DNA from: a phage
DNA: 1,020 bases
Strand: one strand, 5' to 3'
Sequence record: OR846541.1
Below the pieces are notes generated by a model, which was not told where the DNA came from, ran no database searches, and saw nothing but the letters and a program-made list of their open reading frames with translations. The first letter of the stretch is position 1. Each line of letters begins with the position of its first letter. Of this stretch, positions 1 to 1,020 are shown piece after piece. The translations under genes were made by a program, and so were the position numbers.

Positions 1-551
1 GCCCTGCACTCTTCGACAGTCCAGCGATGGCGGTTATGGTTTGATTCGATTTCGTCTACCGCGGCCTGACCGATACGGTTAATAAGCTCGACGCGATACG
101 GAACGAGATTTCCGCTTTTGTGCTGGTTGCACACCACGCATTGCTTGTGAATATTGCGTTCATCAAATCGGAGTTGAGGTGCAGCAGCAGTTGTCCGGTA
201 ATGCCCGGCATCCCACTGAGCAGACGTGAGCGTTCCGCACGAGATACATGGTAAGTCGCGGTCTCTTTCTCTGATGAAGGCGTGTACGGCTTGTTGGGCT
301 TGTTTAATCCAGTAACTGCGGGGCTTTAAGGCGAGTTTTTGAATCTTAAGTTTATCTTTCTGTTTCTGCTCCTCTCGTCGTCGTTTCTTCTCTGCTGCTT
401 TTTCTGCTTTTTCGCGCTCTTTGCTTCGTCGTTCGAGTGCTATCTTGGTTCCACACTCTGGAGAGCACCACCACTGATTAGCGAATGCAGGGTGAAACCA
501 TTCCCGACATTCATCGTTTTTACATCGTCTTCGCGCTGGTTTAGCCATCAT
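1..551 (-). CDS. ninG: NinG / Rap recombination-associated structure-specific endonuclease, N-terminal 183 codons; 3' end lies beyond position 1
   Basis: Minus-strand frame opens with tandem ATG ATG at 546..551 and stays open to the window edge (183 codons plus 2 nt, no stop). Translation: [183 protein letters not shown]... This matches my recollection of lambda NinG (204 aa, begins [15 protein letters not shown]). GAGGA Shine-Dalgarno at 557..561, 5 nt upstream of the first ATG. Not in the supplied ORF track because it is edge-truncated. Confidence 0.92.
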
Positions 552-711
552 CTTTTTCCTCGTGCATCGAGCTATTCGAATCGCTCATCAGCTCTGCGCA
601 GCAGTGCTCACACACGTGAACTTCCAGCACATGCAGCTTCTGACCGCAGTTAGCGCACGTTAAAGCCCGCTCGACGCTTTCTTGTTCGTAACTTCGATTT
701 TGGTCAATCAC
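541..711 (-). CDS. ninF: NinF, small Cys-rich protein of unknown function (56 aa), GTG start
   Basis: Minus-strand frame from GTG 709..711 to TAA 541..543 (57 codons including stop). Translation: (V/M)[55 protein letters not shown]. Matches my recollection of lambda NinF in sequence, length (171 nt) and position between ninE and ninG. GAGGA at 719..723, 7 nt upstream of GTG. Missed by the ORF track because of the non-ATG start. Confidence 0.85.
557..561 (-). promoter_or_regulatory. Shine-Dalgarno (GAGGA) for ninG, embedded in the 3' end of ninF
   Basis: Minus-strand GAGGA followed by a 5-nt spacer and the first of two tandem ATGs (549..551). Confidence 0.55.
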
Positions 712-890
712 CTTGTTTTCCTCGCACGTTCTCTAAGCCACCTGATGTCCCACAGGTGAGCCGTGTAATTAAAGGTTTTTACGTCAGATTCTTTGGGGAT
801 TGGCTTGCGTTTATTTCTTGAGCGTTTCGTTGGAAGGTATTTGCAGTTTTCACAGATTATATCGGTGATACTTCGTCGCTGTCGTGCCAT
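708..890 (-). CDS. ninE: NinE, small basic protein of unknown function (60 aa)
   Basis: ORF given in the supplied track and confirmed by my translation: [60 protein letters not shown]. Matches my recollection of lambda NinE (60 aa, 183 nt). AGGAGG Shine-Dalgarno at 895..900, 4 nt upstream of ATG 888..890. Stop TGA 708..710 overlaps the ninF GTG start. Confidence 0.9.
719..723 (-). promoter_or_regulatory. Shine-Dalgarno (GAGGA) for ninF, embedded in the 3' end of ninE
   Basis: Minus-strand GAGGA followed by a 7-nt spacer and GTG at 709..711. Confidence 0.5.
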
Positions 891-894
891 ACGT

Positions 895-900
895 CCTCCT
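895..900 (-). promoter_or_regulatory. Shine-Dalgarno (AGGAGG) for ninE
   Basis: Minus-strand AGGAGG followed by a 4-nt spacer (ACGT) and ATG at 888..890. Confidence 0.6.
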
Positions 901-924
901 TCGTCTCTGGCCGCGGGAAATTAC

Positions 925-1020
925 CTACTGGCGACCGCTCACATCTGATACACCATTGGTGCCAATAAGGTTGATTTGGCCGGAATCGATAATCGTCTTT
1001 GCTTCATGCAACTCTCCCTG
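925..1020 (-). CDS. 3' end of an upstream ORF (C-terminal 31 codons plus TAG); product not identified, sits where ninD/ninC lie in lambda
   Basis: Minus-strand frame open from the window edge to TAG at 925..927: ...[31 protein letters not shown]. Ordinary codon usage, followed by a 34-nt spacer containing the ninE AGGAGG. I do not recognise the peptide. An alternative overlapping frame exists (see findings), so the call is tentative. Confidence 0.35.

Follow-up and report, generated by a model that had tools for sequence, protein, structure and literature searches.

NinG/Rap of a lambdoid phage: a predicted zinc-stapled HNH nuclease core joined to a putative N-terminal zinc finger by a long charged helix

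The stretch of phage DNA analyzed here (1,020 nt of record OR846541.1; hereafter the window) is filled by a ninD-ninE-ninF-ninG block on the minus strand (Table 1). Its DNA is 96.1% identical to that of P22-like Salmonella phages such as BTP1 and is collinear with positions 41973-42979 of lambda at 92.8% identity. Over 2,200 complete genomes of E. coli contain related copies, with identities of at most ~93% among the full-length matches listed. The source of the window is a lambdoid (P22/BTP1-like) phage or prophage. The ninG gene starts with a tandem ATG-ATG (first codon 549-551, second 546-548), and the stop codon of ninF (541-543) falls within these first ninG codons; the resulting overlap of 8-11 nt suggests translational coupling. 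The ninE stop and the GTG start of ninF also overlap (GTGA, 708-711, minus strand), which links ninE, ninF, and ninG into a run of small genes that overlap one another. Residues of NinG are numbered throughout from the first ATG, as in lambda's annotated 204-aa Nin 204. The annotated start of this gene differs between databases, with 204 aa in the lambda record and 203 aa common among cluster representatives (e.g., P0001). Two plus-strand open reading frames, at 120-254 and 339-653, are antisense to the strongly supported ninG and were set aside.

The 56-aa NinF carries a cysteine cluster of its own, C19-x2-C22 ... C34-x2-C37-C38 (window 598-657, minus strand), and gave sub-threshold Pfam matches to double-zinc-ribbon and Cas12f TNB families (E 0.004-0.008). 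Judged by these sequence features, NinF is likely another small zinc-binding protein.

Table 1. Genes, predicted structural elements, and motif residues in the window. Conservation refers to the 128 aligned divergent relatives of NinG unless stated otherwise.
Feature	Coordinates	Strand	Conservation	Basis
ninD, 3' part, start outside window	857..1020	-		Coordinates carried from lambda Nin 57; ninD in matching records
ninE	708..890	-		Pfam NinE E 1.5e-44; lambda Nin 60
ninF	541..711	-		Pfam NinF E 1.7e-12; lambda annotation Nin 56
ninG (rap), 5' 183 codons, exits left window edge	1..551	-		Pfam PF05766, phrog_171, identity to lambda Nin 204
N-terminal zinc-finger-like cluster, C10-x4-C15-x13-C29-x3-C33	453..524	-		Codons, conservation, AlphaFold2
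C10	522-524	-	Cys 118/128, remaining 10 gaps	Translation
C15	507-509	-	Cys 118/128	Translation
C29	465-467	-	Cys 125/128	Translation
C33	453-455	-	C 113, H 10 of 128	Translation
Long charged K/E/R-rich alpha-helix, residues ~31-74, linking zinc finger to nuclease	330..461	-		AlphaFold2
Helix 78-96, packing on nuclease core, ends in I-R-x-R-D	264..320	-		AlphaFold2; R94/R96/D97 conservation
Zinc knuckle C102-x2-C105, first half of predicted CCCC site	237..248	-		Conservation
C102	246-248	-	126/128	Translation
C105	237-239	-	123/128	Translation
Predicted beta-strand 1, W113-D114-A-G-H117	201..215	-		AlphaFold2 strand; H117 conservation
D114			D 53, H 49 of 128	
H117	201-203	-	127/128; 94/94 in close relatives	Translation
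N133, putative central Asn, just before beta-strand 2, 9 residues ahead of N142	153-155	-	125/128	Translation; conservation
Predicted beta-strand 2 and core helix, I134-H135-K-Q-C138-V-V-C141-N142-Q-H144	120..152	-		AlphaFold2
H135	147-149	-	H 102/128, else N, W, A or R; close set H 54, W 27, Q 7, A 4 of 94	Translation
C138	138-140	-	119/128	Translation
C141	129-131	-	126/128	Translation
N142	126-128	-	128/128	Translation
H144	120-122	-	H 53/128, Y 22, F 10; H/Y/F/E/D across relatives	Translation
G147-N148, after core helix	108..113	-	G 116/128, N 112/128; invariant in close relatives	Conservation

Membership of the window protein in the NinG/Rap family is unambiguous. It matched the Pfam model PF05766 (NinG) with an E-value of 1.2e-83 and 280.1 bits against a cutoff of 25.4, over residues 1-182 and profile positions 1-177 of 193. 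In PHROGs, it matched phrog_171, 'NinG/Rap DNA junction specific endonuclease', with an E-value of 1e-113; none of the NCBIfam models matched. The NinF and NinE matches directly upstream, on the same strand, place the gene at its usual lambdoid nin-region position. The window holds 183 of ~204 codons, and the missing C-terminal ~21 residues fall outside the motifs discussed below. Between this fragment and lambda Rap (Nin 204), 175 of 182 aligned residues (96%) are identical, including every motif residue. One of the seven substitutions is at residue 90 (282-284, minus strand), which is His here, Asn in lambda and in 119/128 divergent relatives, and His in seven; it belongs to the helix packing on the predicted HNH core. 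Lambda Rap is reported to act as a structure-specific endonuclease on Holliday junctions and D-loops (PMC5714182, PMC4118853), and at 96% identity the NinG of the window presumably cleaves the same substrates.

Some relatives depart from the usual annotation or architecture. In at least one deposited record, that of phage O276, the gene is already labeled 'HNH endonuclease'. A 221-aa NinG variant (P0002) ends differently, its last ~45 residues having given way to a Gly/Ala-rich tail that carries a second Pfam domain (PF25688), and a Tyr occupies the position of H144. Two E. coli proteins (P0061 and P0062) are in-frame fusions in which the first ~66 residues of replication protein P (PF06992) precede a NinG that starts near residue 45 and so lacks the N-terminal zinc finger; these fusions presumably stem from prophage deletions spanning ren to ninF.

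A sequence-only reading of the window had described two Cys/His clusters in NinG, namely a ribbon-like four-cysteine arrangement near the N-terminus and an HNH-like metal-binding motif near the C-terminus. By translation, both clusters lie exactly at the codons it had given (453..524 and 120..248), and its residue numbers are correct except for one histidine, listed as H118, that is in fact H117; residue 118 is a tyrosine. It did not list N133, which proved to be among the best-conserved residues of the motif.

Conservation was assessed at two depths. A word-indexed search retrieved 1,403 relatives; the 120 listed were all at least 58% identical and, wherever named, were called 'recombination protein NinG', a few chimeric or unnamed entries aside. 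The deeper set came from an exhaustive HMMER scan covering 1.84 billion cluster representatives, which yielded 3,808 hits at E<=0.001; of these, 128 near full-length proteins, 35-62% identical to the window protein, were aligned as a divergent set. Mean column identity in this alignment is 20%. Conservation reaches 88-98% at the eight Cys positions (with either C or H accepted at position 33) and 98-100% at H117, N133, and N142. At H20, the 128 relatives show no conservation. In close relatives, C102 and C105 are invariant (91 sequences), position 33 is split between Cys (49) and His (44), and the first N-terminal pair is spaced either Cx2C or Cx4C. Beyond the two clusters, R94, R96, and D97, all conserved to 90% or more, belong to an I-R-x-R-D motif that lies just ahead of the first CxxC; their conservation, like that of Y152 and R153 after the core helix, matches that of the motif residues.

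We then turned to structure prediction. From the 182-residue fragment and an alignment of 91 relatives, AlphaFold2 produced a model with a mean pLDDT of 85.6, and residues 75-182 modeled alone gave the same secondary-structure elements with a pLDDT of 90.2 and a pTM of 0.78. In lambda numbering, the model contains strands at 113-117, ending in H117, and at 134-138, followed by a helix at 139-144 and further helices. The beta-beta-alpha fold that the sequence-only reading had anticipated around residues 102-144 is hence present in the model, and its proposal that the C-terminal CxxC...H...CxxCN block forms an HNH core is borne out by the predicted strand-strand-helix order and the conservation of H117, N133, and N142. 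The conserved cysteines C102, C105, C138, and C141 flank the predicted hairpin in two CxxC pairs, the pattern of a treble-clef zinc site. Near the N-terminus, two 2-residue strands flank C10 and C15.

Searches with the model and with profiles differed in what they recovered. Foldseek gave no significant E-value (best 0.41), but its list was dominated by HNH nucleases with modest scores, i.e., McrA, Gme HNH, Cap5, PtuB, and the HNH domain of Cas9. Modest scores are expected for so small a predicted domain, and the specificity of the list is clear. For the N-terminus, the weak neighbors were the GATA3 zinc finger, the DUF1470 protein 3h0n, and YacG; the Pfam family of DUF1470 includes a CGNR zinc finger. 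At the profile level, NinG alone was matched (280 bits): hmmscan of the window protein and of its isolated N- and C-terminal pieces found NinG and no HNH family above threshold. A Pfam scan of 129 relatives likewise detected HNH (PF01844) only below threshold, in 3 of 129 proteins with a best E-value of 0.005. Neither the protein sequence itself nor either of two NinG profiles retrieved a significant chain, or any HNH chain, from the PDB. This absence of an HNH profile match is a matter of HMM sensitivity rather than a defining structural feature.

In His-Me finger nucleases, a nearly invariant catalytic histidine at the end of strand 1 serves as the general base, the single catalytic metal is bound chiefly through core-helix residues, and many members are stabilized by a treble-clef zinc knuckle (PMC5714182). 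The predicted fold, the motif, and its conservation support membership of NinG in this superfamily. Our main reading, to which we assign a probability of roughly 0.86, is that residues ~78-183 form a His-Me finger (HNH) nuclease domain within a three-module protein whose residue roles can be assigned as follows. C102 and C105 of the knuckle, together with C138 and C141, where strand 2 ends and the helix begins, would coordinate a single structural Zn2+ and so staple this very small fold. The general base activating the water for attack would be H117, the last residue of strand 1, and the ligand of the one catalytic divalent metal would be N142, which immediately follows the second CxxC. As the central Asn of the motif, N133 would have a structural role, D114 (Asp or His in relatives) may help in metal binding, and H135 and H144 are probably peripheral. 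Based on the model, the HNH motif of NinG would take the variant form H-N-N, with the canonical N-x8-N spacing. The sequence-only reading had nominated three histidines for mutagenesis. H117, as an essentially invariant residue, retains its place; H135 and H144 vary across relatives and are therefore unlikely to be essential. By conservation, N133 and N142 appear better candidates for the catalytic core than these two histidines. That reading had rightly flagged its division of residues into catalytic and structural ones as inference. Our own data cover the sequence, its conservation, the predicted fold, and the neighbors of that fold; from these we likewise infer that zinc is bound, what the individual residues do, and what the N-terminal module contributes.

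Other explanations of the Cys/His clusters were weighed against this reading. Small nin proteins encoded next to NinG also carry CxxC pairs, and the spacing might simply have arisen by chance in a small Cys-rich phage protein that has no metal site. When 183 residues containing 9 Cys were shuffled 100,000 times with composition preserved, however, four C-x(2-4)-C pairs appeared in less than 1% of shuffles (0.9%). Chance is further contradicted by conservation across relatives, because the eight positions persist at 35-62% identity and one of them exchanges Cys for His; we give this explanation practically no weight. It is also conceivable, though in our view improbable, that the C-terminal block serves solely as a zinc finger, structural or DNA-binding, and that catalysis takes place elsewhere, for example at R94, R96, and D97 or at Y152 and R153. 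These residues are as strongly conserved as those of the motif, no HNH Pfam model matches the protein, and the His-Me fingers include proteins that bind DNA but are no longer catalytic (PMC5714182). Yet H117 and N142 are 99-100% conserved at precisely the canonical general-base and metal-ligand positions of the predicted core, the structural neighbors are active HNH nucleases, and Pfam, PHROGs, and NCBIfam revealed no further nuclease fold or family in it.

A closer comparison is with T4 endonuclease VII (gp49), another phage junction resolvase, in which two CxxC pairs make up a CCCC zinc site. The gp49 query matched T4-type records at 100%; the family profile was built from 12 sequences of annotated phage genes. 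NinG could in principle be a strict member of the endonuclease VII (DHHRN) family and a direct homolog, given that the order CxxC...His...CxxC-Asn, the CCCC zinc site (predicted in NinG), and junction resolution are common to both and that some phage endonuclease VII proteins also possess an N-terminal Cys cluster and a basic linker. An hhalign comparison of the diverse NinG profile with the endonuclease VII profile gave a probability of 3% and a P-value of 0.015, a score reached by 1 of 120 column-shuffled controls, and the motif residues fell in the expected register: C102/C105 on C23/C26, H117 on H41, and C138-x2-C141-N142 on C58-x2-C61-N62. The core-only comparison aligned just 14 columns with the first CxxC alone, at a probability of 1.4%, and the narrow NinG profile compared with the single T4 sequence returned nothing. 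In T4 endonuclease VII, zinc is bound by the two CxxC pairs and the catalytic metal by N62, the residue that follows the second pair; its histidine corresponds to the first His of HNH, and the central Asn is absent (PMC6083498). NinG instead has W-D-A-G-H in place of the DHDH block and keeps the central N133, leaving only the CxxC-Asn in common out of the family hallmarks, which also include a conserved Arg, and its placement in a separate group (group 24) by Jablonska et al. (2017) already suggests that it lies outside. Family membership, which we consider very unlikely, was rejected on the 3% probability, the negative core-only comparison, the lack of DHDH, and the retained central Asn. By analogy, NinG appears to work like endonuclease VII but to stand outside that family.

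Our reading of NinG as a zinc-stapled HNH nuclease can also be set beside enzymes of established structure. EcoKMcrA (6ghc), the phage GVE2 HNH protein (5h0o), and the HNH domains of Cas9 and IscB are solved zinc-containing HNH nucleases. NinG shares 10-16% identity with them and no HMM-level match, and its last motif residue is Asn rather than His. Unlike these nucleases, NinG acts on branched DNA and has two further elements, the N-terminal finger and the long helix. We know of no Cys/His clusters in RusA. RusA is the alternative lambdoid junction resolvase at the equivalent nin position, thought to be functionally equivalent to Rap but structurally distinct from it (PMC4118853, PMC3485210).

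The N-terminal cluster resembles a zinc site in that it is conserved and the putative fourth ligand exchanges Cys for His, as is typical of a metal ligand. To this extent the sequence-only reading holds; its designation as a zinc ribbon does not. A ribbon has two knuckles, each in a beta-hairpin, whereas C29 and C33 lie at the N-terminus of the long helix in the model, and the cluster looks treble-clef-like (pLDDT 76-87 in this region). The isolated N-terminal piece gave a sub-threshold Pfam match to zf-CGNR (E 3e-4). In our model, residues 10-33 would form a small zinc finger with three Cys and one Cys/His ligand, with a knuckle between two short strands and the remaining ligands at the helix N-terminus, and residues ~31-74 would form the long charged helix; finger and helix together probably supply branched-DNA recognition and/or oligomerization. 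The N-terminal cluster is absent from 17 of 113 representatives with an intact CxxC...H...N...CxxCN core (~15%), some of which are possibly truncated sequences, and phrog_5034 is a PHROGs NinG family that covers the C-terminal domain only. The finger therefore looks like an accessory module, and judging from these sequences the nuclease core can exist without it.

A broader possibility, which we put forward tentatively and consider doubtful, is that the CCC(C/H) finger and charged helix constitute a separable module for branch recognition or dimerization that has been repeatedly attached to different His-Me cores in phage junction nucleases. Two mycobacteriophage endonuclease VII proteins and one from a Pseudomonas phage (L010 242-709, L011 203-679, and L013 176-631) have an N-terminal CxxC...CxxC/H cluster and an Arg/Lys-rich linker between the cluster and the nuclease core, which is the module order of NinG; their cores are not detectably homologous to that of NinG. 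If this were true, the separable module, and not the HNH core, would set the preference of Rap for D-loops and junctions.

The zinc-stapled HNH architecture proposed for NinG/Rap holds up and has been in print as a prediction since 2017, when Jablonska et al. assigned PF05766 to group 24 of the His-Me fingers and predicted the same architecture (PMC5714182). They also predicted an HTH-like domain after the N-terminal finger (PMC5714182), where our AlphaFold2 model has one long helix. We found no experimental structure of Rap in the accessible literature and the PDB, and no zinc or mutagenesis data for Rap. What is added here is the ranking of candidates at the level of individual residues and the long helix in place of the HTH, and the conservation and structure prediction provide independent support for Rap/NinG as a zinc-stapled HNH nuclease. 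The choice of residues for mutation is sharpened to H117, N133, N142, and D114 over H135 and H144. The importance of these results beyond annotation quality is small; the residue-level map is nonetheless useful for designing separation-of-function mutants in work on lambda recombination and recombineering.
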